Translations under genes and position numbers: made by a program
Notes under the pieces: generated by a model
What the model was told of the DNA's origin: nothing
The model's database searches: none
What the model saw: the letters and a program-made list of their open reading frames with translations, nothing else
Assembly: GCA_947168565.1 (NCBI GenBank)
Contig: CAMVMM010000009.1
Span: 22,292-86,291 of the forward strand
Reading direction: 5' to 3'
DNA: 64,000 nucleotides
Source: an uncultured Clostridia bacterium
GTDB lineage: Bacteria > Bacillota > Clostridia > Christensenellales > CAG-138
Part shown: in pieces, positions 2,011 through 53,040 of the stretch
Layout: every line of letters begins with the position of its first letter
How positions within the stretch are numbered: the stretch's first letter is position 1

Positions 2011-2040
2011 AACGACATCAACAGACTACGGAGGCACACA

Positions 2041-2571: not shown

Positions 2572-2608
2572 TACATTTTCATTCAACAGAATATTTTTAA
2601 ACATAAAT

Positions 2609-2645
2609 AGCCCTCCGCTGCATATCCACAGCGAAGGGCTTTATA
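2609..2645 (+). terminator. Hairpin terminator after the XRE gene
   Basis: AGCCCTCCGCTG ... CAGCGAAGGGCT stem (one mismatch) followed by TTATAAT. Confidence 0.5.
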
Positions 2646-2731
2646 ATACGGATTTACTTCCAACAAACCTTTTTGTATCATTCCTTTACCCAGCAACCGG
2701 TCGGAATCGGAATGATTCATCATATAAGGTC

Positions 2732-2751
2732 TGTTATCAATTTGTTATCAA
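2732..2751. repeat. Tandem direct repeat TGTTATCAA x2 (11-bp register)
   Basis: cTGTTATCAAttTGTTATCAAag lies between the regulator terminator and the guaA terminator. It is a possible integrase arm-type site. Confidence 0.4.
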
Positions 2752-2809
2752 AGACGGATTCTGAGTTTGAAAAAGCCTTGTGTTTATTAGCTTTTTTAAG
2801 CTCGATACA

Positions 2810-3793
2810 TCATTCCCACTCAATCGTTCCGGTGGGCTTGGGCGTAAGGTCAAACAGCACTCTGTTCACGCCCTTGACCTCGCTTGTGATGCGCGCGGTG
2901 ATAAGGGAGAGCAGCTCGAAGGGAACGGGCTCGACCGTGGCGGTCATCGCGTCGCGGGTATTCACGGCGCGAAGGATGCAGGGCCACTCGTCGCAGCGCT
3001 TATCGTCCTTGATGCCGACCGATCTGAAATCGGGCACGATGGTGAAATACTGCCAAACCTTGCCCTCAAGACCCGCTTTTTGAAACTCCTCGCGCAGTAT
3101 CGCATCGCTTTCGCGCACGGCCTCAAGCCTGTCGCGGGTGATCGCGCCAAGGCAGCGCACGCCGAGACCGGGGCCGGGGAATGGCTGGCGGTAGACCATG
3201 CCGTGGGGGAGACCGAGCGCCTCGCCGACCACGCGCACCTCATCCTTAAAGAGGATGCGAACGGGCTCGACCAGCTCAAAATTGAGATCGTCCGGCAGAC
3301 CGCCCGCGTTGTGGTGCGCCTTGATGCCGTGCTCGCTCTCCAAAATATCGGGCCAGATGGTGCCCTGAGCAAGGAATTCGACGCCGTCCAGCTTGCGCGC
3401 TTCCTCAGCGAAAACCTCGATAAATTCGCCGCCGATTATCTTGCGCTTGGTTTCGGGATCGGCAACGCCCGCAAGCTTGTCAAGGAAACGATCCACCGCG
3501 TCTACGTAGATAAGGTTCGCGTCCATCTCATCCTTGAAAACGCGGATGACCTGCTCGGGCTCGCCCTTGCGCAGAAGACCGTGGTTGACGTGAACGCACA
3601 CAAGCTGCTTGCCGATCGCCTTAATAAGAAGCGCGGCAACTACCGAAGAATCGACGCCGCCGGAGAGGGCGAGAAGGACCTTTTTATCGCCGACCTGAGC
3701 GCGAACGTCCGCGATCTGCTCGGCTATGAACTTTTCCGCAAGCGCCTTTGTGGTGATGCGCTCCATGGTTTCTGGTCTTGTAAGAATTGGCAT
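2810..3793 (-). CDS. guaA: GMP synthase, ATP-pyrophosphatase (PP-loop) and dimerisation part only, 327 aa
   Basis: SGGVDSSV PP-loop, DPETKRKIIG, QGTIWPD, HHNAGGLP, PFPGPGLGVR and the C-terminal KPTGTIEWE are present. Start is ATG 3793 behind GGAGGA. There is no glutamine amidotransferase domain. Confidence 0.85.
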   Translation of the reverse strand: MPILTRPETMERITTKALAEKFIAEQIADVRAQVGDKKVLLALSGGVDSSVVAALLIKAIGKQLVCVHVNHGLLRKGEPEQVIRVFKDEMDANLIYVDAVDRFLDKLAGVADPETKRKIIGGEFIEVFAEEARKLDGVEFLAQGTIWPDILESEHGIKAHHNAGGLPDDLNFELVEPVRILFKDEVRVVGEALGLPHGMVYRQPFPGPGLGVRCLGAITRDRLEAVRESDAILREEFQKAGLEGKVWQYFTIVPDFRSVGIKDDKRCDEWPCILRAVNTRDAMTATVEPVPFELLSLITARITSEVKGVNRVLFDLTPKPTGTIEWE

Positions 3794-3887
3794 TTTTTTA
3801 TCCTCCAAGTAAAATTCGTGTTATTATAACATATCCGGAGCGCAATGAAAAGATTTTTTGCAAAAAAATATATGGAAAACGAAAGCT

Positions 3888-4364
3888 TTATTCATACTCG
3901 GTAATAATCTCCACGCTCTTTGGCAGCTCGCGGAGCCTTTTTCGCAAAAAAACGGGGTAGAAATACTCGTTTTCAATACCCGCAATATCCAGCCATTCGA
4001 ACTCGAGCGTATGGTGGCGTTCATTGATGATGAAGCTTTCACCACGCGAAACAAGGGCGGTATTCGCGCAATCAACAAGAATATAGAAGCATATTTCATG
4101 GAAGCGTTCGCCGCTGCCCTCCTCGGTAAAGAAGCTTTGCGCGATATAGAGCGGGCGAATCACGGAAGCCTCGATATTCAGCTCCTCGCGCAGCTCACGC
4201 AGCACGGCCTGCTCCGCCGTTTCCCCAAGGGCGATCTTGCCGCCGGGCAGGTAGAAATAGGGCGAGCGCTCGTCCGTCATGGCAAGCAGTTTTTCATTAT
4301 TGACGATCACTGCGGCGGCGCGAAGGTTGAAGCGCGCGCCATCCGTTTTAAAGGAAATATCCAT
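3888..4364 (-). CDS. NUDIX hydrolase (158 aa)
   Basis: Nudix box GGKIALGETAEQAVLRELREELNI. Start reset to ATG 4364, because the GTG of the track is itself the GGAGG SD. Confidence 0.85.
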   Translation of the reverse strand: MDISFKTDGARFNLRAAAVIVNNEKLLAMTDERSPYFYLPGGKIALGETAEQAVLRELREELNIEASVIRPLYIAQSFFTEEGSGERFHEICFYILVDCANTALVSRGESFIINERHHTLEFEWLDIAGIENEYFYPVFLRKRLRELPKSVEIITEYE

Positions 4365-4546
4365 TTCAGCCTCCACAGTTATAATGAAGGATTATACCAC
4401 AGCGGCGGCTGGATTGAAAGAAGTTGAAATATATACGATGCGATTCTTGATAAAACCTTGAAAACAGTGCAGCGCTCAGGCATAGAATCGGCTCCGAGCA
4501 ATATAATTTAGCGAACGAAAAGCGAAGCACGGAAGGAGAAACAACA

Positions 4547-21495: not shown

Positions 21496-21525
21496 AATGC
21501 AAAGGATTCCTTGGAGGACAGCTCT

Positions 21526-24500
21526 ATGCTTCAGCTTGTAAATATAACCAAACGCTATAAAACCGGCGAGCTCGTGCAAACCGCGCTGGACGGCGTGAGC
21601 CTTGCTTTTCGTGAAAGCGAGTTTGTGGCGGTGCTCGGCCCGAGCGGCTCGGGCAAAACCACGCTTTTGAATATCATCGGCGGCCTTGATCGCTACGACA
21701 GCGGCGATCTTATCATCAATTCCGTTTCCACAAAGGAATATTCCGACAGGGATTGGGACGCCTATCGAAACCATACCATCGGCTTCGTGTTTCAAAGCTA
21801 CAACCTCATCCCGCATCAGTCCGTGCTTGCGAACGTGGAGCTTGCGCTCACCATCTCCGGCGTCAGCCGCGCCGAGCGCAGAAGAAGGGCGAAGGAGGCG
21901 CTGAATAAGGTCGGCCTTGGCGATCAGCTCCATAAGCGCCCAAACCAGATGAGCGGCGGGCAGATGCAGCGCGTGGCGATTGCGCGCGCCCTTGTGAACG
22001 ATCCGGACGTGCTGCTTGCGGATGAGCCCACCGGCGCGCTCGATTCCGAAACGGGCGTTGCCGTGATGGAGCTTTTGAGGGAGGTTGCAAAAACGCGCCT
22101 CGTTATCATGGTAACGCATAACGGCGAGCTTGCGGAGCAGTACGCAACGCGCACCGTGCGCCTGAAGGACGGCAGAATAATCTCCGATACCGACCCCTTC
22201 GATCCTGCGGCGGAAGGAGCGGCGCGGGCGGAAAAGGATTTGGAAGTTACGGAAGGCAAAAAGCAAAAGACCCGGAAAAAAAGGGTCTCCATGAGCTTTT
22301 GGACGGCGCTCTCCCTCAGCCTGAACAATCTTCGCACCAAGAAGGGCAGAACGCTTCTCACGGCGTTTGCGGGCTCAATCGGCATAATCGGAATTGCGAT
22401 GATACTTTCGCTTTCAACCGGAATACACAACTACGTGTCCGATATTCAGCGGGAAACGCTCTCATCCTATCCGATAGTGCTTGAGCGCGAGCCGAACGAT
22501 ATGCTTAAATCCTTCCTTACCGCGCGGCAGGGGGACAGGGAGGAGCGCGAAAGCAGGAGCAAGGATAAAGTGTATTCCAATCCGCGCATCTACCGCATGT
22601 TTAACGCGGCGTTCACCGGCGGAAGCGAAACAAACAACGTGTCCGCGTTTAAAGCCTTCTTCGATTCAAAACTTGCGGACGGCGCATCCGACCTTTCGCG
22701 CCTCGTTTCGGCGGTGCAGTACGGCTATGAGCCATCGCTGAACGTTTATTTTATGAACGGCGAGGGCGTGTATAAGAATACCGATGTGTCCCGCTCCCTT
22801 TTCGGCGGCGAAAACGGCGAGGACTCCGTGGGCATGAGCATGTTCAGCATGGTTTCATCCCGAATGAGCAGCATGAACCTGTTTTCGGAGCTGCTCTGCG
22901 GCAGAAACGGCGAGCTGCTTGCCCCGATGGTCACGGAGCAATACGATCTGCTTGCGGGAAGCTGGCCCGAAAAGGCGGAGGAGATACTGCTTGTGCTCGA
23001 TCAGCGCGGCGAAATAAGCGACAACGCCTTTTATGCCCTGGGCTATATCGAGGAGGAGGAGCTTCGCTCAATCCTGAATTCCGTTTTCAAGGGCGAGGAA
23101 ATTGAGGAAAAAACGCGCAGCGCCGAGTTTTCGGAGATCATCGGCAAGCAGTTCAAGCTTGTGCTGAATTTTGAGCAGTACAGAAAGTCGGAAAGCGACG
23201 CCGCGCTCTGGGAGTTTATAGGCGACGACGAAAAGTCGATGGAGCTGATAATCAAAAACGGCATCGATCTGAAGATAGTGGGCATCATCAAGCCCAATTC
23301 CTCCAGCGCAATGCAGATAACCGGCGCATTCGGCTACACGAGGCTGCTTACGGACGCCATAATCGAAAAAACCGCCGCTTCGGAGCTGATAAAAGAGCAG
23401 AGCAGGAGCGAAAACGAAAACCTCGATATTATCAGCGGGCTGCCCTTCGTTATAGCGGATTCGGAGGAGCCCTCGGCCGATGAAAAGGCGGAGCTTGCGC
23501 GGGAGTATTTTTCACAGATAAACGATGCGCAGAAGGTGGATATCTACACCAAAATTCTTGCCCTTCCGGATGAAACGGAGCTTGCCGCGCTGGTGGAGGG
23601 GTATCTTGCGCAGTATCCCGACCGCGAGGCGCAGATAGAGCTTGCCTCCGCCACCTTCGGCTTCTCCAAGGATGAGATGCGCGAATACCTTGCGGATTAT
23701 ACCGACGAGGAGCTTAAAAACCTGATGGTGGAGCAGATAAGGGGCATAGTTTCCGCGCAGCAGGAGGAGGCGGCGAAGCTGCAGATCGCGCAGCTTGTGC
23801 GCGAATTATCCGAGCCGGGCGATCTTTTCGGCGTAACAGGCTACCGCGCCGTTGCCGCTATGTTTGACGCGCAGATGGCGGGGGAGAGCACCGAAAAGCT
23901 TGCTCTGTATCACGATAAATTCATGCCGGCCAAGGTTTCCGGCTCCACCCTTGCGGACAGGCTGAAGGAGTTTGGCAAAATAGACGCAAACGAGCCCGCC
24001 ACCATCAGCATCTACACCTCCTCTTTTGACGATAAGGAGGCGGTGACGGACGCGATAAAGGCGTATAACGAAGGCGTGCAGAACCCCGAGGATGCGATAG
24101 AATATACCGATTACGTTGCGCTCCTTATGAGCGGCGTTACCACCATGATAGACGCGGTGTCCTACGGCCTTATCGCGTTCGTGGCGATCTCGCTGGTGGT
24201 TTCATCCATCATGATTGGCATCATCACATATATCTCCGTGCTTGAGCGCACCAAGGAGATCGGCATCCTGCGCTCCATCGGCGCGTCCAAGCGCAACGTG
24301 CGCTCCGTTTTCAACGCGGAAACGCTCATCGTCGGCTTCTTTGCGGGGCTTATAGGTATAGGTGTTACAGTGCTGCTGTGCATACCGCTGAATATCATAC
24401 TGCGCAGGCTCACGGGCATCGAAACGCTCAGGGCGGTGCTTCCGCTCAATGCGGCCGTGGTGCTGGTGCTTATAAGCATGCTGCTGACGCTTATTTCCGG

Positions 24501-24561
24501 CCTTATCCCTGCGGGAGTTGCCGCAAGGAAGGATCCTGTAACCGCGCTTAGAACGGAATAA
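21526..24561 (+). CDS. Fused ABC transporter: MacB/LolD-type ATPase plus FtsX-type permease with a very large extracytoplasmic domain (1011 aa)
   Basis: Walker A GPSGSGKTT, signature MSGGQMQRVAIARAL and Walker B LLADEPTGALD. TM1 lies near residue 280, followed by an acidic/coiled region of about 590 aa, then a C-terminal FtsX 3-TM bundle (EIGILRSIGASKRNV). Confidence 0.85.
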   Translation: MLQLVNITKRYKTGELVQTALDGVSLAFRESEFVAVLGPSGSGKTTLLNIIGGLDRYDSGDLIINSVSTKEYSDRDWDAYRNHTIGFVFQSYNLIPHQSVLANVELALTISGVSRAERRRRAKEALNKVGLGDQLHKRPNQMSGGQMQRVAIARALVNDPDVLLADEPTGALDSETGVAVMELLREVAKTRLVIMVTHNGELAEQYATRTVRLKDGRIISDTDPFDPAAEGAARAEKDLEVTEGKKQKTRKKRVSMSFWTALSLSLNNLRTKKGRTLLTAFAGSIGIIGIAMILSLSTGIHNYVSDIQRETLSSYPIVLEREPNDMLKSFLTARQGDREERESRSKDKVYSNPRIYRMFNAAFTGGSETNNVSAFKAFFDSKLADGASDLSRLVSAVQYGYEPSLNVYFMNGEGVYKNTDVSRSLFGGENGEDSVGMSMFSMVSSRMSSMNLFSELLCGRNGELLAPMVTEQYDLLAGSWPEKAEEILLVLDQRGEISDNAFYALGYIEEEELRSILNSVFKGEEIEEKTRSAEFSEIIGKQFKLVLNFEQYRKSESDAALWEFIGDDEKSMELIIKNGIDLKIVGIIKPNSSSAMQITGAFGYTRLLTDAIIEKTAASELIKEQSRSENENLDIISGLPFVIADSEEPSADEKAELAREYFSQINDAQKVDIYTKILALPDETELAALVEGYLAQYPDREAQIELASATFGFSKDEMREYLADYTDEELKNLMVEQIRGIVSAQQEEAAKLQIAQLVRELSEPGDLFGVTGYRAVAAMFDAQMAGESTEKLALYHDKFMPAKVSGSTLADRLKEFGKIDANEPATISIYTSSFDDKEAVTDAIKAYNEGVQNPEDAIEYTDYVALLMSGVTTMIDAVSYGLIAFVAISLVVSSIMIGIITYISVLERTKEIGILRSIGASKRNVRSVFNAETLIVGFFAGLIGIGVTVLLCIPLNIILRRLTGIETLRAVLPLNAAVVLVLISMLLTLISGLIPAGVAARKDPVTALRTE

Positions 24562-28593: not shown

Positions 28594-29286
28594 CTAAAGC
28601 CTTTCCGAAAGATAGGCGTTCAGCTTTGTGAGCGCGCGCTTCTCTATCCTTGAAACATATGATCTGGAGATGCCGAGCAGCTTTGCAACCTCCCTTTGCG
28701 CAAGCGGAACGCCGTCCTTCAGCCCGTAGCGCAGTATCACCACGATGCGCTCCTGCTCCGAAAGCAGCCTGCCGACTGCGGCTCGAAGCGTTTTCGCGTT
28801 CGAAGCTTCTATCACGCTGTCCGTAAGCGGAGCATCGCCGCTTGCAAGCACGTCCGAAAGGGTGATCTCGTTTCCGTCGCGGTCGCTGCCGATTGGCTCC
28901 TCAAGTGAAATATCGCCCCTGTACTTCTTTTCTCCTCTTATGGACATCAGTATTTCGTTTTCGATGCAGCGCGAGGCATAGCCCGCCACGCTTTTGCATT
29001 TTTCGCCGTTGAAGGTGTCCACCGCCTTTATCAGGCCAACGGTTCCTATTGATATTAGATCGTCCGCGCTTCTTGAAGGCGAAGCGTATTTCTTTGCAAT
29101 ATGAGCCACAAGCCGAAGGTTGTGCTCGATAAGCTTGTTTCTTGCCTCCGCGTCGCCGCTTTCAAGTTTTTTCGTAAGCTCCGCTTCTTCCTTTTGCGAA
29201 AGCGGCGGGGGAAAGCTGCCTTTAGGCGTTATCGCGCCCACAAGCACGAATATGCTTTTTATCAGCTCTATCAATGCACCTATCAT
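28594..29286 (-). CDS. sigK: Sporulation sigma factor SigK (pro-form, uninterrupted)
   Basis: GSFPPPLSQKEE...ARNKLIEHNLRLVAHIAKKY, CIENEILM and GISRSYVSRIEKRAL closely parallel B. subtilis SigK. A ~20-aa hydrophobic pro-sequence is present. No intervening element. Confidence 0.85.
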   Translation of the reverse strand: MIGALIELIKSIFVLVGAITPKGSFPPPLSQKEEAELTKKLESGDAEARNKLIEHNLRLVAHIAKKYASPSRSADDLISIGTVGLIKAVDTFNGEKCKSVAGYASRCIENEILMSIRGEKKYRGDISLEEPIGSDRDGNEITLSDVLASGDAPLTDSVIEASNAKTLRAAVGRLLSEQERIVVILRYGLKDGVPLAQREVAKLLGISRSYVSRIEKRALTKLNAYLSERL

Positions 29287-29434: not shown

Positions 29435-29463
29435 TTGATAAATCGGAAAATATAAAGTAAAAT
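29435..29463 (+). promoter_or_regulatory. Sigma-A type promoter of the Spo0A-like gene
   Basis: TTGATA, a 17-nt spacer, then TAAAAT, about 30 nt before GTG 29496 (SD GGAGGGAG). Confidence 0.5.
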
Positions 29464-29495
29464 CTTATCAGCAAAACAGATAGGAGGGAGAGCAG

Positions 29496-30398
29496 GTGAA
29501 CAGCTTTGATTTGGGAACGGGCGCTTTCAAGCAAAAGCCGCTTGCGATGCTGCTTTTTGATGCTGATGAAGCGGGCGATGATTCGGAGGAGCGCAAAGGC
29601 TCGGAGAGGCTAAGCCGTGCCGCAGAGCAGTCCTATCCAAGCAGGCTGAGGACTGCGCTGGAGAAGCATTTTCGCGTTGTGTCCATAGTCGGAAACTGCA
29701 GCGAGCTTTGGACGGAGCTTTTCAACGAGATACCGAACGTGCTTATCGTGAGCAGCGCCCTGCGCGAGTTTGACGCGGTCGGGCTTATCCGCAGCCTGAA
29801 ATCAAGCCGAAACAGCTATGATATCCGCTTCTTTCTGAGCTGCAGGCGCGTGAACGCCTCCATAATGAGCGTTTGCCGCGCGGAGGGCATAGACGGCTGC
29901 ATACCGCTTGATGAGGACGTGGATATGTCCGCAGCCCGCGTGTTTGAGCAGTACAGCTCGCTTGAAAAGTCCGCAGATGAGCGAAGGCTTGAGCTTATCA
30001 AGAAAATGATTGAAAGCGATATGTATTTCAGGGACGTTGCGGTGCGTTTTGAGGAGGATTCAAGGCTCCGCGAAGCGCTGCTGCTCCCGCTCGGCTTCAA
30101 TCCGGAGCATAAGGGCACAAAATACCTTGAGCTGATGATAGGACTGCGAGTGCTCGGCTGTGAAAGCAATATGGCGCTGCTGTATGCTCTGGCGGGCAAT
30201 TGCTTCGGCGTGTCCAAGGCGTCGGTTGAAAAAGCGGTGCGCTATTCCATAGAGCGCGCCTGGAGCGGCTCGACCCCCTATATGCAGTATCGGTTATTCG
30301 GAAACACGGTCGATTCCGAAAAGGGCAAGCCGACCAATGCGGAATTTGTTGAAACCCTGGTGCGGCACACTATCGATTATTACAAGCCCGGCTTTTGA
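29496..30398 (+). CDS. Spo0A-like protein: degenerate (pseudo-)receiver domain plus conserved Spo0A C-terminal DNA-binding domain
   Basis: The C-terminus (HKGTKYLELMIG...VSKASVEKAVRYSIERAWS...GKPTNAEFVETLV) aligns with Spo0A-C (HIKGYLYLREAI...ASRVERAIRHAIEVAWS...AKPTNSEFIAMVA). In the N-terminal REC-like fold the phospho-acceptor position reads IVSSAL instead of LVLDIIMP, and the conserved Lys is missing. Confidence 0.8.
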   Translation: MNSFDLGTGAFKQKPLAMLLFDADEAGDDSEERKGSERLSRAAEQSYPSRLRTALEKHFRVVSIVGNCSELWTELFNEIPNVLIVSSALREFDAVGLIRSLKSSRNSYDIRFFLSCRRVNASIMSVCRAEGIDGCIPLDEDVDMSAARVFEQYSSLEKSADERRLELIKKMIESDMYFRDVAVRFEEDSRLREALLLPLGFNPEHKGTKYLELMIGLRVLGCESNMALLYALAGNCFGVSKASVEKAVRYSIERAWSGSTPYMQYRLFGNTVDSEKGKPTNAEFVETLVRHTIDYYKPGF

Positions 30399-31696
30399 TG
30401 CGGGCAAGCTTGGCATTAACTATGGTTATTATCGGAAACGGAAGGCTTATCCGCTTCACCTCGGGCGAGTTTTGCATCGAGGGCGGCGCGGTATGCGTTG
30501 AGGGCAAAAGCGTTAAGGATTTTGGCGCGGATGCGGAGCTTCGGCAAAAGTACCCGGAGGCTGATTATATTGACGCGCGCGGGGGCTTGATAATGCCGGG
30601 CCTTATAGACGCGCATTCCCGCGCCCGCTACTGCATGCTGCACCACCGTGAAATTCCATCCTTCAAGCCGGAGGAGAGCAGCCGCCTTGCAGATGGGCTT
30701 CTGCGGAGGATGGACGAAAAAACGAATCACGATGAGCTCATCTCAACTGCCCTGCATCATGCGCGGCGCTGCATTAAAAGCGGAATCACGACCGTGTTCG
30801 AGCATCACGTTTCCCCGTCGGATCCGTGCGGAAGCCTGATCACCCTTGCGGGCGTTTACCGTGAGTGCGGAATAAGAGCGTGCCTTGATTATGAGGTGAG
30901 CAGCAGATTCGGCACGCGGCACGCGATGGCGGCGGTAAAGGAAAGCGTGGAGTTTATAGAATACTGCGAGGAGCTGAATATTGATACCGTGAAGCCCATG
31001 ATAGGGCTCGGCAATTCACTTTACCTCAGCAACGAGCAGCTTGAGGACTGCATAAGATCGGCAAACGGCAGGGCGGGGTTTCATATCCAAGCGGGCGGAT
31101 CGGTTGAGGAGGTTTCCTTTTCCATAAGAAAATTCGGGGCGCGTCCGCTTCAAAGGCTTGACAGGCTTGGGATCATAGGCTCTCGGAGCATCGTTTCGGG
31201 CTGTGTGTACGCAGATTCCGACGAATGGGAGCTTCTGCTTTCGCGCGGGGGCTTTGCAGCGCTCACGCCGAATCTCGCAATGCTTATGGGCGGCGCGTAT
31301 AAAAGCGCGGCGCTTGGGGCGGTGATGAGCGAACGGGCCTGCATCTGAAGCGCTCCGCTTTCAGGCGAACTGATAAGCGCTGCGCACGCCCTCTGCGGAA
31401 TGCTTGCTCTGGACGGGGCGGCGCAGGAGGATTACAGAACTCCGGGCGCGAAAATGCTGTTTCACGCAAACCCGCTGCTTGCTTCCGGGGTGTTCGGCGC
31501 CGGCCTTGGCAGAATCGAGATAGGCGCGCCCGCAGATCTGATCGTTATGGAAACAAACGAACCGGCTTCTCCCGAAACCGAGGAGGAGTGCTTTTCGCTT
31601 CTTACGGATTTCGGAACCCGCTGCACCCATACTTTTGTCGCGGGCAGGCTTTTGATGCGGGACGGAGAGCTGCTGAACGACGATATGACGCTCTGA
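30398..31696 (+). pseudogene. Amidohydrolase-superfamily (chlorohydrolase/SsnA/MtaD-like) gene interrupted by one in-frame TGA (31346-31348), with degenerate metal ligands
   Basis: Track ORFs 30395..31348 and 31400..31696 are in the same frame with a single TGA between them. The fold is recognisable (PGLIDAHSR.., ..GAPADLIVME...FVAGRLLMRDGELL), but HxH reads HSR and later His/Asp ligand positions are substituted. The ATG overlaps the upstream TGA (TGATG). Confidence 0.65.
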
Positions 31697-31751: not shown

Positions 31752-33200
31752 ATGAGTGAGCTGCGTAAAAAAGAGAACAATTTGCGCGTGGATGCTCCTC
31801 CCGCTCCCGAAGCTTCACAGCGGGCGGGCGGAGCGTGCGCATTTTCCTATTTTGTGTGCGAAAGCAGGCGGGAGGCGGAGGAGCTCAAAGCAAAGCTTGG
31901 CGATTTCGCGTCCGGAAAGGGTATGCGGATAAACGGCTTTTTCTACGATATAGCCGGGAGGCAGCCCTACGTGCTGCTGAACCTGATAGATATCTGCTCG
32001 AAAAGGAAAAACGCAAAGCTGCTTGCGCCTTCTCCCGCGCATATCGGCGGCGGAGGTCTTGCCGAGATGGCGCTGAACGCTCACGCCGCGCGGAAAGGAT
32101 TACGCATTATTTACGCCGAGCCCAAGCGCGAACGCCTTGAGATAGGCGGAACGGAGCTCGGCGCATTTCCCGTGCGCGTATTTTTTCTTCAAAATATAGC
32201 GAATTATTTCGGCTTCGGGCAGGACAGATCAAACAGCGCGAGCCCCGGAAGCAGGGGCGGAAAGTGCATTCAGGGCAGGCTCCCCCTGGGCTTTGTGTCC
32301 GCTCACGGCAGAATATGCGTGGATGAGCGGGGCGCGGAAGCGGTGAGGGAGATATTTGCCCGCTTTGCGAGGCTTGAAACCCCAACGGGCATAATTGACG
32401 CTGTTAAAAAGCGCTATCCGGATATAAATTGCCCAACAAGAAATAATATCTATTCGCTGATCTGCAATCCAAGATATATCGGCAGGGGAGAGAGCGCGTT
32501 TCCGCCGATAATTGAAAACAGGCTGTATCTTGATGCCTGCGCGGCCCTGGAAAAAAGAGGTATCTGCGAGCGTGAGCATCTGTTTCTGCTCGACAGCTTG
32601 AGCTGCGCGGGAGGAATAAAGCTTTTGCCGATCGAGTACAGCTCGCGGCTGCACACGAGCGCCTACGCTTCAAAGGGCGCAAAACCGAAGCTCTCCGTGC
32701 GTGCGGACGAAGCGGAAGCCGCCGTTCTCAGCTGCGTTTGCGAATCTCTTTCGGGCGAGATACCGGAGCTGCGCAGGCTCTGCACGGGATCCGCTTCCTT
32801 TGCGGGGCTTTTTCATACCGAAGCCCTGGCGCTTGAAAGCGAGCTTGATGAGGCGGTGGACGAGCTTCTTTCCTCATCCAAAGGCAGCTCCGCTTATGCA
32901 AGAAAATTCTCCGTGCGCTCATTCGACGAGCTCTCCGCACGATGCAGGCTGCTTAAAATCAGAATAGCCCATCTTGAATACCTTCACGGTCTTTTCAGCG
33001 TAACGGAGGAGATGGTGAACGAGTATCTGGGCAGGCTTTCAAGCCTTGAAACGGCATCGAGGCGCGAGAAAAGGTTTTTTCTTGACCATATCGTGAAAAA
33101 CGTTTCGATCGATGAAAACGAGCTTATCGTGTCGGTCTATTGCCCAAGGGGCATAAAGCGCATACGCTCCGCTCTTTGCGCACGGCTTGTGGCGGAATAA
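31752..33200 (+). CDS. Large-serine-recombinase-like protein with a degenerate catalytic domain (482 aa)
   Basis: The recombinase domain is well kept (GRLPLGFVSAHGRICVDERGAEAVREIFARFARLETPTGIIDAVKK...ICNPRYIGRG), as are the coiled-coil and C-terminal tail. The N-terminal resolvase motifs are eroded: YxRxS reads YFVCES, the DRLSR region is absent, and no Zn-ribbon Cys pairs are present. Confidence 0.6.
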   Translation: MSELRKKENNLRVDAPPAPEASQRAGGACAFSYFVCESRREAEELKAKLGDFASGKGMRINGFFYDIAGRQPYVLLNLIDICSKRKNAKLLAPSPAHIGGGGLAEMALNAHAARKGLRIIYAEPKRERLEIGGTELGAFPVRVFFLQNIANYFGFGQDRSNSASPGSRGGKCIQGRLPLGFVSAHGRICVDERGAEAVREIFARFARLETPTGIIDAVKKRYPDINCPTRNNIYSLICNPRYIGRGESAFPPIIENRLYLDACAALEKRGICEREHLFLLDSLSCAGGIKLLPIEYSSRLHTSAYASKGAKPKLSVRADEAEAAVLSCVCESLSGEIPELRRLCTGSASFAGLFHTEALALESELDEAVDELLSSSKGSSAYARKFSVRSFDELSARCRLLKIRIAHLEYLHGLFSVTEEMVNEYLGRLSSLETASRREKRFFLDHIVKNVSIDENELIVSVYCPRGIKRIRSALCARLVAE

Positions 33201-42998: not shown

Positions 42999-44969
42999 TC
43001 ACGGGGTGACGGACAAGGATCTGATCCGATCAAACGGATTCATCAGCTTGCCGTATACCGGAGCGGTGATCTTCGAGGAGTGGATAAAAGCGTACCTGCC
43101 GGCGAAGCGAACGTGATACCAGCTTCCCACGGCGTGCCAAACCTCAACGGATACGCCGGGATACAGCACGAATATCGGAGCGCTGTATTCGGAGGGGCCG
43201 AACCTGAGCTGTGCATCCAGCACGCCGGGGCGCACGGTGGAGTAGCCGATCGCGTGCTCCGCGCCCAAGGGAGCGGGGAAGAGATCCACGCGCACAAGAT
43301 CGCCGCGGATATAGCCCAGCTTATTGTTTGCTATGCACACGAGCCAGCCGTTCGTTTCCGTTATCACGTCCACGTGAGTGCCGATGGGAAGCGTGTCGAT
43401 GATGGAATGATCCGTTCCGGGGCCGGACCTCATGCGGGCGGAGGAGGCGGAAACCGTGCCGAAGGCAACAGGCTGCTTGGAATAGGAGTTCGGCAGCTCC
43501 GGGTCGCGCTCGCGTACCTCGCGCAGATCCATGCCGGGATAGTAGAATTTCAGTATTTGACTGTAATTGAAGCCGTCCTTGGCTCTGCCGTCCGCGCCGT
43601 GCTGAGAAAGCCCCAGGCCGTGACCGTAGCGGCATCTGTAAACGGTGTAGCCTCCGGAGGTGGCCCTGCCCCAATAGATGCGAAGGTTGCGCCCGGGCTT
43701 GTACAGCACGGAGTAGGTGCCGAGGAGCGATACGTCAAACTCAAGCGAAACGGTGCTTATCGTTCCGTTGTCGTTCACCCTTGCGGAAACGCTCATCCGC
43801 GTCAGATCCAGGGTGGTATCGGGGTGTTTCCTTGTGTGAACGCTCGCGCTTGTAACTGTAATAAGCTCCGCGCTGTGCCCAAGCTGCTGCGCGATTCGGT
43901 CATTCAGAAGGCTTCTGAAATTCGCGTTCGTTACCGGCTCGCCATACACGATGTTCAGCTCGCTGATGTAATCATCGGGTGTGTTTGGCATATCATAGGG
44001 GTCGAGGCGAACGGAATACGCGCCGTCAAAGCCGGATGAACCGAACGCATACGAGGGAAGGGTTGTTTCGCCGCCGTTGGTCGCGCCGAAATTCGTGGGA
44101 GCAAGGATATTGCCGTAGAAAAGGATCTTGCCGCACATCTCGCGGCAGGGCTCCCACGCAAAGCTGCTGCCCACGCTGTCGGAATAGCCGCGATAGCCAA
44201 GATGAGCCATCGAGGATGTGATATCATAATTCTCGTTGCCTGAGGAATACGCAAAGGCATAGGTCTTTGCGGCTATTGCCTGCGCATATACCGCCTCCCT
44301 GTGCCACGAGCCGTTGATCTCATAAGGCACTATGCCGTAGAGGTAATGCGCGGTAGGCACCACGTTTATAATATCAAGCTCGCTGCCGCTTGCCATGATG
44401 CGGAAGCTGCCCAAATAATCCTTATCGTTGGTGCTGCTGCTCGGCACGGTCTGCACGTTTGCATACCCGCCGGAGCGGGAGAGCAAAACGCGGTTAAGGT
44501 CGATCACGCTGCCCGAATAAACCAAAGCTGCATTGTAATAAGCATAAGCTATTCCGTTTGAAGCGGTGAAGCGAACGATGGCGGGCTGATTCTGCGTGCC
44601 AACGATAGGGGTCAGCGTTTGATCAATATAATACGCACCGTATAGCGCAAGCCTTATTTCCCGAACGGCAATATCGGGTTCGTGCGTCAAAAGCACGCGA
44701 ACGGTGGAGTAATCGTCCGCCTCCGTGCGCTCCGAGATTCTTTGCGCAAGGGGCGTGCCGTCCTCATAATAAGGAAGCTGCATCGAGTTTGGGTATTCGT
44801 TTTCATTTACGGCAGCCGGCGGGCAGCTTTCTATATTTGAAACCAAATGGTCATCCGATGCCGAAGGGCTGCTCGAAGGGGGCTTGGCCGAAGCGGGCAG
44901 GGCAACCGTGCCGAAAATAATAATCAGCGCGGTGAGGAATGCAAGCAGTTTTGTGCTGTTGCGCTTCAT
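42999..44969 (-). CDS. SpoIID/LytB-domain protein with two C-terminal SH3b domains (secreted)
   Basis: Signal peptide ending ALPASA. SpoIID/LytB core (VYAQAIAAKTYAF ... FGATNGGETT ... LSQHGA). Two C-terminal SH3b modules (SARMRSGPGTDHSIIDTLPIGTHV.., LDAQLRFGPSEYSAPIFVLYPG..). Confidence 0.8.
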   Translation of the reverse strand: MKRNSTKLLAFLTALIIIFGTVALPASAKPPSSSPSASDDHLVSNIESCPPAAVNENEYPNSMQLPYYEDGTPLAQRISERTEADDYSTVRVLLTHEPDIAVREIRLALYGAYYIDQTLTPIVGTQNQPAIVRFTASNGIAYAYYNAALVYSGSVIDLNRVLLSRSGGYANVQTVPSSSTNDKDYLGSFRIMASGSELDIINVVPTAHYLYGIVPYEINGSWHREAVYAQAIAAKTYAFAYSSGNENYDITSSMAHLGYRGYSDSVGSSFAWEPCREMCGKILFYGNILAPTNFGATNGGETTLPSYAFGSSGFDGAYSVRLDPYDMPNTPDDYISELNIVYGEPVTNANFRSLLNDRIAQQLGHSAELITVTSASVHTRKHPDTTLDLTRMSVSARVNDNGTISTVSLEFDVSLLGTYSVLYKPGRNLRIYWGRATSGGYTVYRCRYGHGLGLSQHGADGRAKDGFNYSQILKFYYPGMDLREVRERDPELPNSYSKQPVAFGTVSASSARMRSGPGTDHSIIDTLPIGTHVDVITETNGWLVCIANNKLGYIRGDLVRVDLFPAPLGAEHAIGYSTVRPGVLDAQLRFGPSEYSAPIFVLYPGVSVEVWHAVGSWYHVRFAGRYAFIHSSKITAPVYGKLMNPFDRIRSLSVTP

Positions 44970-45335
44970 TGAAAGAATCTCCTTTCCGAAGGTATGTGTT
45001 TTTTATTCAAGCCGCACGCGCTTCAAAGCGGATCGAAGTGCGGAGCAGCTCCCCCTCCGATTTCAATTATAGCATTAAAACACAAGTTTATCAAATGCAA
45101 AGCCGGTATACATTCAGTAAGTTAAGTTTAACAAATAATATATAAACAAACATAAGCCTGCCTGACGGCATGAGCTTGAACGTAATGCTAAAGCATATTC
45201 CGTGCAAAACAAGCGGAACTGCCAAAAACAGACTTTATTAGCTCTCATAACCTGAATAATTTAAAAAGGGAATAGCCATTACTAATTGCATAGACTAAAA
45301 AACAGCTTGCCGTGAATCGGCGCTATGGAGGAAGT

Positions 45336-46109
45336 ATGGCGTTCAATAAGGTTGAGATCTGCGGGGTCGATACGGGCTCGCTGCCGAAGATAGGTTATAA
45401 GCGAAGCTTGGAGCTGCTTGAGCGGATAAAAACGGGCGATGAGGCGGCGCGGGAGGAATTCCTTGTCGGAAATCTCAGGCTGGTGCTCAGCGTTATCCAG
45501 CGCTTTTCCGGCAGATCCGAGCAGCCGGACGATCTGTTTCAGGTCGGCTGCGTTGGCCTTATCAAGGCGCTCGATAATTTCGACACCTCGCATAACGTTC
45601 GCTTTTCAACCTATGCCGTGCCTATGATAATAGGGGAGATAAGAAGGTTTTTAAGAGACAACAGCTCGGTGCGCGTTTCAAGGTCTATGCGCGATACGGC
45701 ATACAGAGCCCTGCAGATAAGAAATAAGCTTCAGGACGCAAACGGTTCGGAGCCCAGAATATCGCAGATAGCGCAGGAGCTTGGCATTCCGGAAGCGGAC
45801 GTGGTGTTTGCGCTGGATGCGATCTCGGATCCGATCTCGCTAAATGAGCCGATCTATATGGACGATGGCGACGCGGTATACGTTGAGGATCATATCAGGG
45901 ACGAAACGGCGGACGACAGCCTGTGGCTGAACAGCATAGCGATCTCAAACGGCATGAGCAGGCTGAACGAGCGCGAGCAAAATATTATAAAATTAAGATT
46001 TTTCAAAGGAAAAACGCAGACGGAGGTTGCAGATCAGGTGGGCGTGAGTCAGGCTCAGGTATCAAGGCTTGAAAAGGCGGCGCTGATGAAGATGAAGAAA
46101 TACCTGTGA
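45336..46109 (+). CDS. sigG: Forespore sigma factor SigG (257 aa)
   Basis: Near-colinear with B. subtilis SigG: NKVEICGVDT, GNLRLVLSVIQRF, DLFQVGC.GL.K..DNFD.SHNV.FSTYAVPMIIGEIRR.LRDN, GVSQAQVSRLEKAA. ATG 45336 lies behind GGAGG. Confidence 0.85.
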   Translation: MAFNKVEICGVDTGSLPKIGYKRSLELLERIKTGDEAAREEFLVGNLRLVLSVIQRFSGRSEQPDDLFQVGCVGLIKALDNFDTSHNVRFSTYAVPMIIGEIRRFLRDNSSVRVSRSMRDTAYRALQIRNKLQDANGSEPRISQIAQELGIPEADVVFALDAISDPISLNEPIYMDDGDAVYVEDHIRDETADDSLWLNSIAISNGMSRLNEREQNIIKLRFFKGKTQTEVADQVGVSQAQVSRLEKAALMKMKKYL

Positions 46110-48763: not shown

Positions 48764-50569
48764 CTACTGCTGGCGTGCCTGCGAATCCGCGGCGGGCAAA
48801 AGCTCAGGATGCTCGGCGTCGCCCGGGTCGCGCTCCACGGTGAAGGTGAAGCGAATCATTCCATCCGTATATGAAACGTTTATCTTTTCATTCAGCAAAT
48901 TGAGCACCTCGGAAACGATGGCAAGCCCAAGCCCGGTGCCTTCTCCGGAATGGGAGTGATCCGCCTTGTAGAAGCGCTCGAAAATATGCTCCAGGTCGGC
49001 CGCCTCTATCACGGCGGGGTTGCTGACGCTGAACTCGTAGCGGCTTGCGTCCGCATTGAGCGCAAGGCCGATATGCACCGCGCACCCCTCGTTTCCGTGC
49101 TTAACGGCGTTGTCCGTAAGCGCAATAAGCACCTGCTCGATCCTTGCCGCGTTCGTGCTTGCAAGATAGACGCCCTCTTTAACCTCAAGCTTAACGGATT
49201 TTCCGCGCTGATGCGCAAGGTCGTTCATCCTGTCCGCAACGTCGTAGGCGATTTCAAACAGATCGACCCTTGCCTTGGTGAAGGCAACGCCGCCGCTTTG
49301 CAGCCTTGAAAGCTCAAGCAGATCGTCTATAAGCTGCGAAAGGCGGATGGATTCGCGCTGGATATAGCCGTAGTAGCGCATCTGATCCTTGGGGTCGGTG
49401 ATTATGCCGTCGCAAAGCGCGTCCGAAAGGCTGCGGATGGAGGCAAGCGGCGTGCGTAGCTCGTGGCTGACGTTTGCAACGTAGTCGCGCCTTGTTTGCT
49501 CAAGCCTTTCGCTCTCGGTCACGTCGCTAATAAGGGTAACCGCGCCGCCAAGCGCGCCGTTTGATTCGTGGATCGGAGTGGCGGAAAGGCGAAGCAGACG
49601 GTCGGCAACGCTTGCCCTTCCTTTCGCCCGAGCATCGTTTTCAAGGGAGCGCATTATCGCCTCGCGCACCGGCTCATAGGAGGGAAGCTCGGAGGGATCA
49701 TCCTCCTCTCCGCCGCCAAGAAGCTTGAGCGCTGCGGAGTTGTAATGCGTGATGGTGCCGTGCCGATCAACGGCTATAATGCCCTCGCCGATGCCGTCCA
49801 AAACGGTGTTCAGGCGGTTTCTTTCCATCACAAGGTGGTCTATATTGCTTCTGAGCGCGTCGGCAAGCGTGTTGAAGGATTCGGCAAGATGCTGTGATTC
49901 GAAGCTCCCTCGCGGCACCGCGCGCGCGTCCAGATCGCCGTTTGCCATTTTGAGCGCCGTTTCCGAAACCGCTCTGATGGGCTTTGTGACGAAGCGAAAC
50001 ACCAGCACGGAGGGAATGAGCGCGATCAAAAGTATCACAAGCATCAGCGCGCCGAACTGGAGCGCAAGCTTATTCATGCGATCCTGTATCGCCGAGCCGC
50101 GGTGAATCAGGATCACGGCGCCGATTATCCTCTCCGAGCCATCCAGTATAGGCACGCCGACAACTATGCCGATGGTGGCGTTCGGCATGGAAACCTCGTT
50201 TCCCTTCATAACGGAATCAAAGCACAGGGAAACCGTTTCCCTGGCTTCGTTCCTGTTGGAGCCGTCGTCGTTTGTGATGATATTGCCGTTTGCTTCGATA
50301 ACGTACGTGGAGGTTTCTGAGATGGCGTAATCCTCGGAGTAAACCATCCTTGAGATGGTGTGCCTGTCCGCATTTTCAAGATACAGCTTTGTGACCTGGT
50401 GCGAAATCGCCTTTGCCTTGGGCATAAGGTCGTCCGTTTTATAATTCACGTAGATGTCGCGGCCGAATATGGAAAACATCACCGCGATAATGGCAACCAC
50501 AAACGTCACCGTTATGCTCACGATGAAAAGTATTATTTTAAACAGGCTTGTTCGCTGTACGGTGGACAT
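48764..50569 (-). CDS. Sensor histidine kinase (2 TM, extracytoplasmic domain, HAMP, PAS, HisKA, HATPase)
   Basis: H-box SHELRTPLASIRS, N-box LTDNAVKHG, G-boxes GTGLGLAIV. Confidence 0.85.
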   Translation of the reverse strand: MSTVQRTSLFKIILFIVSITVTFVVAIIAVMFSIFGRDIYVNYKTDDLMPKAKAISHQVTKLYLENADRHTISRMVYSEDYAISETSTYVIEANGNIITNDDGSNRNEARETVSLCFDSVMKGNEVSMPNATIGIVVGVPILDGSERIIGAVILIHRGSAIQDRMNKLALQFGALMLVILLIALIPSVLVFRFVTKPIRAVSETALKMANGDLDARAVPRGSFESQHLAESFNTLADALRSNIDHLVMERNRLNTVLDGIGEGIIAVDRHGTITHYNSAALKLLGGGEEDDPSELPSYEPVREAIMRSLENDARAKGRASVADRLLRLSATPIHESNGALGGAVTLISDVTESERLEQTRRDYVANVSHELRTPLASIRSLSDALCDGIITDPKDQMRYYGYIQRESIRLSQLIDDLLELSRLQSGGVAFTKARVDLFEIAYDVADRMNDLAHQRGKSVKLEVKEGVYLASTNAARIEQVLIALTDNAVKHGNEGCAVHIGLALNADASRYEFSVSNPAVIEAADLEHIFERFYKADHSHSGEGTGLGLAIVSEVLNLLNEKINVSYTDGMIRFTFTVERDPGDAEHPELLPAADSQARQQ

Positions 50570-50681
50570 CTATGATGCAGTGCCTTTCTGTTTTGCTCGT
50601 TTGAATATTATGTTTACGATGGTTGCGCCAAAAAACAGGCGGAACATTTATCCGTGTTCCGCCGAAGCGACAAAGCCGGGG

Positions 50682-51443
50682 TCACTCGCGCAGCTCGTCG
50701 GCGTATTCGTCCTCAAGCGCGATCTCCTCCCTGGGGGGCTGAGCGCCGTCCGCATACACCTCGAAGCGGTAGCCGACGCCGTAAACGGTGCGCAGCGCCC
50801 ATCCGCGCTCGGTATGCTGGGCGATCTTTTGGCGGATGCGCTTTATCTGCGTGTCAACGGCGCGGGTGTCGCCGTAGTAGTCGTAGCCCCAAACGATGGA
50901 GAGTATCTTTTCCCTTGAAAACACCTTTCCGGGGTGGGAGGCAAGAAGCTGGAAGATCTCCACCTCCTTGGGCGTGAGCTGGATGCGCTCGCCGTCTATG
51001 CGAACGTCGTAATTATTGATATTTATCTCAAGGTTGCCATAGCGAAGAAGCTGCGCCGGCTCGGTCTCCTGCATATTGAATCTGCGGAGCACAGCCTTTA
51101 TGCGCGCCACGACCTCGCGCGCGCTGAAGGGCTTAACGATATAATCGTCCGCCCCGAATTCAAGCCCGAGCACGCGGTCGATCTCCTCGGATTTGGCGGT
51201 GAGCATGATGATGGGAACGTTGCTTGTTTGCCGAATCACCTTGCACACGTCCATGCCGCTCTTTTTCGGCATCATAAGATCAAGCACTATCAGGCAGGGC
51301 TTGTGCTTATTGAATTCCTCGATAGCCTGCTCGCCGTCGAAGGCGGAGATATAGTCGAAGCCCTCGTTTTTAAGGTAGGCACCAAGCGTTTCGTGGATGA
51401 TATGCTGATCATCGCAAATCAAGATCTGCTGCTTTGCTGTCAT
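50682..51443 (-). CDS. OmpR-family response regulator
   Basis: REC with DD...LDLMMP...KP and a winged-helix output (LTPKEVEIFQLLA...RTVYGVGYRF). It has an unusual acidic ~25-aa C-terminal tail. Confidence 0.9.
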   Translation of the reverse strand: MTAKQQILICDDQHIIHETLGAYLKNEGFDYISAFDGEQAIEEFNKHKPCLIVLDLMMPKKSGMDVCKVIRQTSNVPIIMLTAKSEEIDRVLGLEFGADDYIVKPFSAREVVARIKAVLRRFNMQETEPAQLLRYGNLEININNYDVRIDGERIQLTPKEVEIFQLLASHPGKVFSREKILSIVWGYDYYGDTRAVDTQIKRIRQKIAQHTERGWALRTVYGVGYRFEVYADGAQPPREEIALEDEYADELRE

Positions 51444-51768
51444 GGCTGATCCCTCCGATCAAATATTGAGCAGCATCAGAATGCCGCTATTTTATTATAA
51501 TTCATTTTCGTTTCAGTTTCAAGCGCTCCGGAAAGCGGAATAGGATAATTTATTTTGGGATCGGCGCACTCAAAAGGGATTTTGACATTTTTTGTACACA
51601 TTTGGTCAAACAAAAGCCATGCTTTAATACCTTTGATTGCCATATTTTCTTGATACAATGCTATTGGTATAAGTATGTGCTTTTTGCTGTTTATTGCAAT
51701 CTGTGTATGCGCCCCTGTATCGTGCTTTACGGGGCAAAGCAAAATACTGCGGCAAGGAGAATAAAATA

Positions 51769-53040
51769 ATGGCATTCAACGGCACTCCGGATCCTATGGC
51801 TCGGAATAATGAAATGCTTCAAAATCAGAATACGGTCAAAGCCTCGGAGGGCGGCGGCCAAAGCAGGCCCGGCGCAAGGCGCGTGGATATGTCCATGGGC
51901 GCTTTCATCGCCTGCCTTGTGGCCGTGCTGCTTGTGACGATCCTTATGATCGGCGCCATAAATATTATCCGAACGACGAACAGCAGGCGGGTGAACATCA
52001 TCACCACGCCCTCTCCCTTTGAAAACTATGCTCAGCAGTCCGGCGGGGATGATTCGAACAGGAATCACAACGAGCCCGAAAGCAGCGGCTTGCCCTTCTT
52101 TTCGGACGATACTCAGTCCGAATCCGCCTTTTCGCTTATCGGCAGGGCAATGTCCAGCGTTGTATGTATCGACGTGATGGCTCAGAGCGGGCATTCAAGC
52201 ATGAATAAGAGCTCCGGCTCCGGCGTGATCGTTTCGGAGGACGGCTACATAGTGACCTGCGCTCACGTGATAGACGGGGCGGACAAGATCTACGTGTATA
52301 TGGACGATGGGCTGAGCTGTGAGGCCGCCGTTGTCGGACGCGACAGCCTGGGCGACATTGCCGTATTAAAGGTGGATGAAACCGAGCTGCCGTACGCCTC
52401 GTTTGGCGATTCCTCGGCGCTTCGGGTGGGTGAAAACGTGTTCGCTGTCGGAAACGCGCTCGGGCAGCTTTCAAACACCTACACGCGCGGCGTTGTGAGC
52501 GGCCTTGAAAGAACCGTTAAGCTTAAGAGCAAGGAAGCAAGGCTCATCCATACGGACGCCGCTGTGAATAACGGCAATTCGGGCGGCGGGCTTTTCAGGG
52601 CTTCCGACGGCGCCCTGATGGGCATTGTGGACAGCGTTTCGATCGGCGGCGAGTATGACTGCCTCGGCTTTGCCATCCCGTCCACCATCGTTTCCGACAT
52701 CGTCAAGGATCTGATAAACTTCGGTTACGTGCTCGGCAGACCCTATCTTGGCGTTGAAACCGAAAGCGTCACCCTCTCCGGCTTCGGCTTTTTCACAAAC
52801 TATCACACGTATCCCAAGATAACCGCTCTGAAGGAGGACGGCCCCGCAGAAAAAGCAGGGCTTGAGGTCGGGGACGTGATCCTCTCCGTCGGTGGCACCT
52901 CCGTTTCGGATGCCGATGCGCTTGACGCCCGGATAGGCGCCTTTGCGGCGGGCGACACGGTCGTGCTCTCTGTGATGAGAGCGGATGAAACCCTCGATAT
53001 CGAGGTAAAGCTTGAGGAGAGAACGCAGCCGGATGAATAA
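51769..53040 (+). CDS. htrA: HtrA/DegP-family serine protease with TM anchor and PDZ domain (423 aa)
   Basis: Catalytic triad blocks TCAHVI, D..GDIAVLKV and GNSGGGLF. C-terminal PDZ (GLEVGDVILSVGG). ATG 51769 lies behind AAGGAG. Confidence 0.9.
   Translation: MAFNGTPDPMARNNEMLQNQNTVKASEGGGQSRPGARRVDMSMGAFIACLVAVLLVTILMIGAINIIRTTNSRRVNIITTPSPFENYAQQSGGDDSNRNHNEPESSGLPFFSDDTQSESAFSLIGRAMSSVVCIDVMAQSGHSSMNKSSGSGVIVSEDGYIVTCAHVIDGADKIYVYMDDGLSCEAAVVGRDSLGDIAVLKVDETELPYASFGDSSALRVGENVFAVGNALGQLSNTYTRGVVSGLERTVKLKSKEARLIHTDAAVNNGNSGGGLFRASDGALMGIVDSVSIGGEYDCLGFAIPSTIVSDIVKDLINFGYVLGRPYLGVETESVTLSGFGFFTNYHTYPKITALKEDGPAEKAGLEVGDVILSVGGTSVSDADALDARIGAFAAGDTVVLSVMRADETLDIEVKLEERTQPDE

Follow-up and report, generated by a model that had tools for sequence, protein, structure and literature searches.

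A Spo0A-like protein with an aspartate-less pseudo-receiver from an uncultured Clostridia bacterium, and its relatives in gut and rumen metagenomes

The stretch of DNA analysed here, referred to throughout as the window, comprises 64,000 nucleotides from an uncultured Clostridia bacterium (GenBank assembly GCA_947168565.1, contig CAMVMM010000009.1, positions 22,292 to 86,291 of the forward strand). On its plus strand it carries a gene for a Spo0A-like protein of 300 amino acids, here termed gene X and its product X, in which a pseudo-receiver is joined through a linker to a Spo0A-type DNA-binding domain. An earlier inspection of the letters of this DNA, hereafter the sequence-only reading, had pointed to this open reading frame (ORF) as a Spo0A paralog devoid of a phospho-acceptor aspartate. 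The ORF proved to be real, as it is intact over 300 codons, begins with GTG and is preceded by a ribosome-binding site. The features of gene X and its upstream region are given below in window coordinates, each with its basis in brackets.

29435..29463, plus strand: sigma-A-type promoter TTGATA-17-TAAAAT (consensus scan, 10/12)
29481..29486, plus strand: ribosome-binding site AGGAGG, 9 nt 5' of the GTG of gene X (direct reading of the sequence)
29496..30398, plus strand: gene X including its stop codon; pseudo-receiver, linker and Spo0A_C (ORF listing, sequence, Pfam and NCBIfam scans, homologs)
29541..29966, plus strand: N-terminal (beta-alpha)5 pseudo-receiver, aspartate-less, residues 16-157 (AlphaFold2 model, Foldseek, hhalign)
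29559..29561, plus strand: codon of Asp22, the sole acidic residue left after strand 1 (joint and family alignments)
29571..29624, plus strand: disordered acidic stretch inserted after strand 1 and ahead of helix 1, residues 26-43 (predicted local distance difference test score, pLDDT, below 50; alignments)
29751..29753, plus strand: codon of Ser86 at the phospho-acceptor position, Asp56 in B. subtilis (hhalign, joint MAFFT alignment, end of strand 3 in the AlphaFold2 model)
29841..29843, plus strand: codon of Cys116 at the conserved Thr/Ser position (hhalign, joint MAFFT alignment)
29907..29909, plus strand: codon of Leu138 at the position of the conserved pocket Lys, K108 (hhalign, joint MAFFT alignment)
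30078..30368, plus strand: Spo0A_C DNA-binding (effector) domain, residues 195-291 (PF08769, E=1.7e-18; PDB 1lq1 and 1fc3)
30219..30263, plus strand: counterpart of the Spo0A recognition helix, ASVEKAVRYSIERAW, residues 242-256 (alignment to 1lq1 and canonical Spo0As)

In the Pfam scan a single domain of X was recovered, namely Spo0A_C with 67 bits against a cutoff of 25, and no match to Response_reg (PF00072) was obtained. The NCBIfam model of the Spo0A equivalog family, TIGR02875, scored 49.2 bits, under its cutoff of 200 bits. Judged by these scores, X is a member of the Pfam Spo0A_C family that stands outside the Spo0A equivalog family. A receiver fold of the N-terminal half is predicted by an AlphaFold2 model computed from 15 sequences of the family (mean pLDDT 74.5, with means of about 68-93 for blocks of ten residues in the N-domain outside the loop), in which the secondary structure elements follow the order b1-a1-b2-a2-b3-a3-b4-a4-b5-a5 and strands 1, 3, 4 and 5 span residues 16-20, 82-86, 111-116 and 134-137, respectively. 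When the N-domain was compared with the PDB by Foldseek, the matches were receiver domains, among them those of PhoP (2pkx), VicR (8fk2), KdpE and Spo0A itself (5wq0), with target-normalized template modelling (TM) scores of 0.76-0.83 and root-mean-square deviations of 2.2-2.9 A. Moreover, alignment of the X family with 18 Spo0A homologs by hhalign covered 248 columns, beginning at helix 1 and ending at the C-terminus (probability 100%, E=5.5e-41).

With respect to the residues of the former phosphorylation pocket, hhalign and a joint MAFFT alignment are concordant with each other and with the strand positions of the model. The acceptor position at the end of strand 3 is occupied by Ser86, and over the 27 family members of the joint alignment this column holds Ser in 20 cases, Glu in four and Asp in three. 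The only Asp in the vicinity, Asp93, aligns with the conserved Asp of the 'DG' motif at the beginning of helix 3 and not with the acceptor, so that no Asp is structurally placed at the acceptor site. Leu138 takes the place of the pocket Lys, and Lys is absent from this column in all 27 members. The conserved Thr/Ser position is represented by Cys116, which Ser115 merely adjoins, and varies between C, S and A across the family. One of the two acidic residues following strand 1 is gone; the other one, Asp22, belongs to a column with D or E in 22 of the 27 members. The subsequent loop of about 20 amino acids varies in length within the family and is absent from canonical Spo0A and other canonical receivers. 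Most of what the sequence-only reading had stated about this half of the protein was thereby upheld: the receiver-like fold, for which it had suggested a structure prediction, was borne out by the model and by Foldseek, and the losses of the acceptor Asp and of the conserved Lys as well as the insertion of about 18 amino acids in the acidic pocket, which corresponds to the low-confidence loop, were recovered at the positions given above. On the other hand, its view that the Thr/Ser residue is kept was off by one residue. Its claim that X escapes phosphorylation on the usual Asp agrees with a Spo0A-type effector domain joined to an acceptor-less pseudo-receiver.

The helix-turn-helix domain in the C-terminal half is intact. 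The Spo0A effector domains 1lq1 (E=1.2e-7) and 1fc3 match residues 205-287 of X with E values of about 1e-7, and the strings by which this domain had previously been identified as a Spo0A effector domain are indeed present (ASVEKAVRYSIERAWS at residues 242-257 and KGKPTNAEF at residues 276-284), in line with the PF08769 match. Within the recognition helix, X shares V, E, R, E, A and W with canonical Spo0A, and the family-specific changes are R to A/S, R to K/R and H to Y. Accordingly, the family consensus A[AS]VE[KR]A[IV]RY[SA]IE.AW replaces the near-invariant canonical helix SRVERAIRHAIEVAW. Since the nearly invariant canonical SRVERAIRH reads A[AS]VE[KR]A[IV]RY throughout the X family, a function of X as competitor at 0A boxes, as contemplated before, is doubtful. 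In addition, the C-domain of the family features a deletion of three residues in the aB-aC region, and the motifs PYMQY and FGNTVD are conserved specifically in the family. Spo0A_C is the best-conserved part of X and accommodates most of the invariant family columns. Median identity of this domain amounts to 51% within the family and to 65% among Asp-bearing Spo0As across Firmicutes, compared with 36% between both groups; the domain encoded in the window shares 32-34% identity with canonical Spo0As.

A search of 5.8 billion proteins with X retrieved 14 full-length homologs of 279-410 amino acids and 33-97% identity, all with Spo0A_C as their only domain. When 1.84 billion cluster representatives were searched with a profile, 24 sequences were found at E<=1e-30, about 18 of them being full-length family members with at least 189 bits; canonical Spo0As rank below the family, most of them at about 95-120 bits. 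The resulting clade of about 25 sequence clusters is well separated. Its members stem exclusively from metagenomes and metagenome-assembled genomes (MAGs) of rumen, animal gut and human gut, and none from an isolate. In neighbour-joining trees of 27 family sequences and 17 other Spo0A homologs, the family clade was recovered in 200 of 200 bootstrap replicates with all columns, in 189 with the C-domain alone and in 181 with the N-domain alone. Hence, both domains of X diverged together. A search of the literature on Spo0A with an aspartate-less receiver, pseudo-receiver, Spo0A paralogs or PF08769 found no description of these proteins. The X family is a small, conserved and previously undescribed family of uncultured gut and rumen Clostridia.

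Several observations bear on the constraint acting on gene X. The ORF is full-length and intact in about 27 diverged sequences, and 27 columns are invariant in the alignment of 15 family sequences. Compared with its relative at locus L167 (97.8% identity), gene X differs by ten synonymous and eight non-synonymous codons, corresponding to a ratio of non-synonymous to synonymous differences per site (pN/pS) of about 0.24, which, with 18 codons, is weak evidence when taken alone. Five of these eight replacements lie in or beside the disordered loop (residues 24-52). Taken together, gene X appears to be under purifying selection.

Beyond the X family, about 22 of 99 sampled cluster representatives of Spo0A length lack the acceptor Asp and have N, E, S or G in its place (e.g. 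P0041, P0043, P0049, P0056, P0081 and P0087), several of them with a fully canonical recognition helix. Aspartate-less relatives of Spo0A thus recur, which suggests a phenomenon that extends beyond the X clade; judged by these sequences, such homologs seem to have arisen repeatedly. Another deviation from the canonical architecture was met in the proteins P0033 and P0035-P0038, which are made up of two to four Spo0A_C domains in tandem and have no receiver domain. As to nomenclature, IMG names the family member P0184 'two-component system response regulator (stage 0 sporulation protein A)'.

The promoter upstream of gene X is of the vegetative type, as the sequence-only reading had proposed, and its position is conserved in five loci from three lineages that share the arrangement termed type A below. 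At L167 the identical TTGATA-17-TAAAAT is located 32 nt 5' of the start codon, and L084, L218 and L219 feature TTGAAA-17-TA[AG]AAT at a distance of 34-36 nt. Since this site has been kept at the same position even though the X proteins of the latter three loci are only 43-46% identical to that of the window, the predicted promoter is likely to be real. A different outcome was obtained for the presumed near-0A boxes. The heptamers TGTCGGT (29339) and TGTCGAT (29362), which deviate from TGTCGAA by two mismatches and one mismatch, respectively, do exist upstream of gene X, but they occur at chance level, with about 0.5 one-mismatch sites expected per 209-nt spacer between sigK and gene X. The window shows no enrichment of exact 0A boxes (five observed versus 7.5 expected), and no near-0A site is conserved in the upstream regions of five loci.

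The two immediate neighbours of gene X in the window are the following.

28594..29286, minus strand: sigK, divergent neighbour, listed for context only (NF004471; 289 bits, cutoff 252)
30398..31696, plus strand: SsnA-like amidohydrolase gene (sequence; NCBIfam SsnA models below cutoff; homolog alignment)

Four arrangements, types A to D, were distinguished around gene X. In type A (the window, L084, L218 and L219), the genes yqfD-phoH-yqfF-ybeY-era-recO and a CpsB-like phosphatase gene are followed by the divergent sigK and gene X, and subsequently by the amidohydrolase gene, a gene for a protein of about 470 amino acids and miaB-mutS-mutL-miaA; the miaB-mutS part is not present downstream of gene X in the window. 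In type B (L002 and L220), mutS2 is followed by genes for an OmpR-type regulator, a kinase (L002) and HtrA, then by gene X and the amidohydrolase gene, and in type C (L081) genes of ABC transporters precede gene X and the amidohydrolase gene. In type D, found on human-gut contigs of up to 246 kb, X bears a long N-terminal extension and is followed by a MacB-like ABC protein. The neighbours recO, sigK, miaB, mutS and mutL in several lineages place gene X in the core chromosome. The divergent orientation towards sigK, emphasized previously, is real in the window; nonetheless, sigK adjoins gene X in only one of the four types: it does so in the window, L084, L218 and L219, whereas L081, L002, L220 and L187 lack this neighbour. 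The surroundings of gene X were not matched at any of 77 canonical spo0A loci taken from GTDB genomes, and L053, with mutS nearby, encodes an ordinary Asp-bearing Spo0A.

The amidohydrolase gene directly follows gene X in types A, B and C. In the window its ATG overlaps the stop codon of gene X (TGATG), and because of this overlap both genes are probably co-transcribed. The amidohydrolase frame is interrupted by a single in-frame TGA at 31346..31348, beyond which the frame is conserved. Selenocysteine at this codon is not indicated, as homologs have Gly or Tyr there and not Cys. In the window and in L002, the HxH metal motif of the enzyme is reduced to one His.

The protein of about 470-510 amino acids encoded after the amidohydrolase is found in five lineages (window 31752..33200; L084 12275..13684; L002 11986..13527) and evolves fast, with 20-32% identity; it exhibits a marginal match to Recombinase (PF07508) and lacks a resolvase domain. 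Judged by this match, the protein near sigK may represent a large serine recombinase that has been domesticated or has degenerated. A MacB-like ABC/FtsX fusion of 1016 amino acids is encoded at 21511..24561 of the window and is 61% identical to the product of the gene that follows gene X in the human-gut contigs (6958..10011 in L187). A cluster that encodes an OmpR-family regulator and an HtrA-like protease, together with a histidine kinase called in the window and in L002 (window 48764..53040; L002 6337..9946; L220 7750..9890) is situated 18 kb from gene X in the window and directly upstream of it in the type-B loci. Finally, a tyrosine integrase is encoded at 521..1699 of the window and several ORFs without family match at 2026..4427; an integrated element may be located at this left end.

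Sporulation genes are represented in the window and related contigs by sigK with its pro-sequence, sigG, a gerM-like and a SpoIID-like gene, yqfD, yabP and spoVAC; in addition, the window contains a weak YtxC-like match below cutoff (E about 1e-5). The sigG gene (45312..46106) and the gene of a SpoIID/LytB-domain protein with SH3 domains (42999..44969) form a divergent pair, and sigG passes the cutoff of NF006071 and is solitary, without spoIIGA-sigE upstream. In spore-formers, spo0A is usually linked to spoIVB. This mark of canonical Spo0A is missing at gene X, and no canonical spo0A and no spoIVB turned up in the 64 kb of the window or in the 10-kb flanks of the X homologs. The window was searched by tblastn with P0015 and with an approximate sequence of B. 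subtilis Spo0A. The only other Spo0A-like match, at 50682..51443, was rejected as canonical Spo0A, since it represents an OmpR-family regulator with its kinase. The absence of a canonical spo0A says little, as the examined sequence amounts to only a few percent of a genome; to call X a paralog, as the sequence-only reading did, is an assumption.

In the interpretation that we favour with moderate confidence, X is a divergent, lineage-specific DNA-binding transcription factor of the Spo0A family that acts without aspartate phosphorylation. DNA binding independent of phosphorylation is the natural reading of a Spo0A-type effector domain on a receiver without the usual Asp, and a histidine kinase or phosphorelay would consequently be unable to switch X on. 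By analogy with other aspartate-less receiver regulators, the retained receiver fold may function as a dimerisation or regulatory module. The activity of X would then be set either by how much protein the vegetative promoter yields or by some non-canonical input, for which a partner protein, a ligand or a modified Ser or Cys of the former pocket are candidates. With its changed recognition helix, X probably binds a sequence that is related but not identical to the 0A box. Most likely, X operates alongside a canonical Spo0A and, as an accessory regulator, controls a gene set of its own. Such an accessory paralog is more likely than a phosphorylation-independent master regulator because a near-invariant helix has been altered, evolution is fast, linkage to spoIVB is missing and additional spo0A copies are documented in Clostridia; the fact that about a fifth of the other representatives of Spo0A length are aspartate-less as well points in the same direction.

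Some points weigh against this interpretation. The role of X as a transcription factor is ascribed purely by homology, and a canonical Spo0A coexisting with X was seen neither in the window nor in any flank. X evolves faster than the flanking housekeeping genes: between the lineages of L084 and L002, MutS is 79% and MiaB about 80% identical, compared with 57% for the C-domain and 32% for the N-domain of X, and the rapid change of the N-domain is compatible with relaxed constraint. The three members with Asp and the four with Glu at the acceptor column imply that some relatives could behave otherwise. Furthermore, Ser86 could in principle be the target of a Ser/Thr kinase, which would keep X under control by phosphorylation.

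This last thought leads to the notion that X is still phosphorylation-controlled, be it by a Ser/Thr kinase that modifies Ser86 or some other residue, or via a different Asp. Receiver domains of other regulators are known to be phosphorylated on Ser/Thr, and the dominance of Ser at the acceptor column, in 20 of 27 members, does not look like random substitution; moreover, the remaining seven members have Asp or Glu. However, the conserved neighbourhood contains no kinase gene, the sole nearby Asp is that of the helix-3 'DG' motif, and Ser accounts for 15% of the substitutes in aspartate-less receivers generally, according to Maule et al. 2015 (PMC4395418), so that such control is quite improbable. 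Greater weight is given to the view, still a doubtful one, that X is the only Spo0A of its lineage and thus its master regulator, with entry into sporulation no longer dependent on Spo0A phosphorylation. It draws on the sporulation genes in the window and related contigs, on the full-length homology to Spo0A with the same architecture, on the name given to one family member by IMG and on the lack of canonical spo0A and spoIVB in the 64 kb and in every 10-kb flank, the latter being weak in view of the small part of the genome covered. It is opposed by the C-domain, which is 36% identical to canonical ones that share 65% among themselves, and by the altered recognition helix, with which an entire regulon would have had to co-evolve. 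The rate of evolution, much above that of flanking housekeeping genes, the missing spoIVB linkage and the distant paralogs documented beside a canonical copy in Clostridia likewise speak against it. The fuller version, in which a still-sporulating clade of gut and rumen Clostridia takes its decision without phosphorelay or kinase input to Spo0A, by means of a sole Spo0A with dead receiver and retuned helix, is unlikely.

Loss of the catalytic receiver residues, fast evolution and an NCBIfam score far under the cutoff would also be expected of a decaying, functionless spo0A remnant in a lineage that is losing sporulation, and degraded spo0A genes have been reported in non-spore-formers; in the window, even the next gene contains an in-frame stop. 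Yet decay is very improbable in the face of about 27 diverged intact full-length ORFs with 27 invariant columns, the motifs PYMQY and FGNTVD and a position-conserved promoter, a pN/pS of about 0.24, and intact, well-scoring sigK and sigG. A phage or mobile-element origin had been raised as a matter to be checked, X being conceivable as a Spo0A mimic that hijacks or blocks host sporulation in the manner of the truncated spo0A of gut phages. Phages do carry genes for Spo0A effector domains (PMC10294663), viral contigs yielded 194 Spo0A_C loci, the second gene downstream of gene X is recombinase-like and degenerate, and the window contains the integrase mentioned above. None of the 194 viral loci encodes a full-length member of the family, though, and the viral matches cover only the last 40-100 residues at 32-47% identity. 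Considering also the conserved housekeeping neighbours in several lineages, the distance of 28 kb between integrase and gene X and the single phylogeny of both domains, an origin of this kind is unsupported and barely credible.

The favoured reading, that of a Spo0A-family regulator acting without aspartate phosphorylation, matters because Spo0A is the master switch of sporulation and its phosphorylation is treated as the universal entry to endospore formation. X provides a natural case in which a Spo0A effector domain encoded in a bacterial chromosome is detached from the phosphorelay. Working next to a canonical Spo0A, it would add a phosphorylation-independent layer to the control of development in abundant Clostridia of gut and rumen; were it the only copy, the assumed universality of phosphorylated Spo0A would be overturned. 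The presence of spo0A is, moreover, widely used for predicting sporulation in genomes and MAGs, and surveys based on KEGG Orthology (KO) terms or domains may count the X family as Spo0A, as the IMG name of one member already does.

In comparison with known systems, X shares with canonical Spo0A (TIGR02875; B. subtilis and C. difficile; 1lq1, 1fc3 and 5wq0) the succession of receiver fold, linker and Spo0A_C as well as KGKPTN[AS]EF and the helix core V-E-x-x-x-R-x-x-I-E-x-A-W. Unlike canonical Spo0A, it is devoid of the acceptor Asp, the pocket Lys and the Thr/Ser residue, has a loop of about 20 amino acids after strand 1 and is encoded without spoIVB nearby. Divergent Spo0A homologs are also found among the additional spo0A copies of Clostridia: ten of 118 genomes of cultured Clostridia contain two copies and Anaerostipes hadrus three (Galperin et al. 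[quoted passage not shown] In these cases the canonical copy is documented and the function of the paralogs is unassigned. The truncated Spo0A of phages (Schwartz et al. 2023, PMC10294663) resembles X in that the effector domain is uncoupled from the phosphorelay. It lacks an N-terminal domain and resides in viral genomes, whereas X has a conserved N-domain of 157 residues and belongs to the core chromosome. Aspartate-less receivers (ALRs), finally, are an established class with examples such as HP1043, ChxR, RitR and FrzS; in the text of the paper that describes them (Maule et al. 2015, PMC4395418), its output-domain figure apart, Spo0A appears only as a D-to-E mutational example and in the reference for it. 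ALR regulators and X alike keep the receiver fold, replace the phospho-Asp, commonly by Ser, and retain the first acidic residue at the expense of the second. About 70% of ALRs keep a basic residue at the position of the pocket Lys, which X has lost, and X is further set apart by its Spo0A_C output domain and by the unusual loop after strand 1. In terms of sequence, X hence resembles an aspartate-less-receiver regulator with a Spo0A output, for which an activity independent of phosphorylation is predicted.

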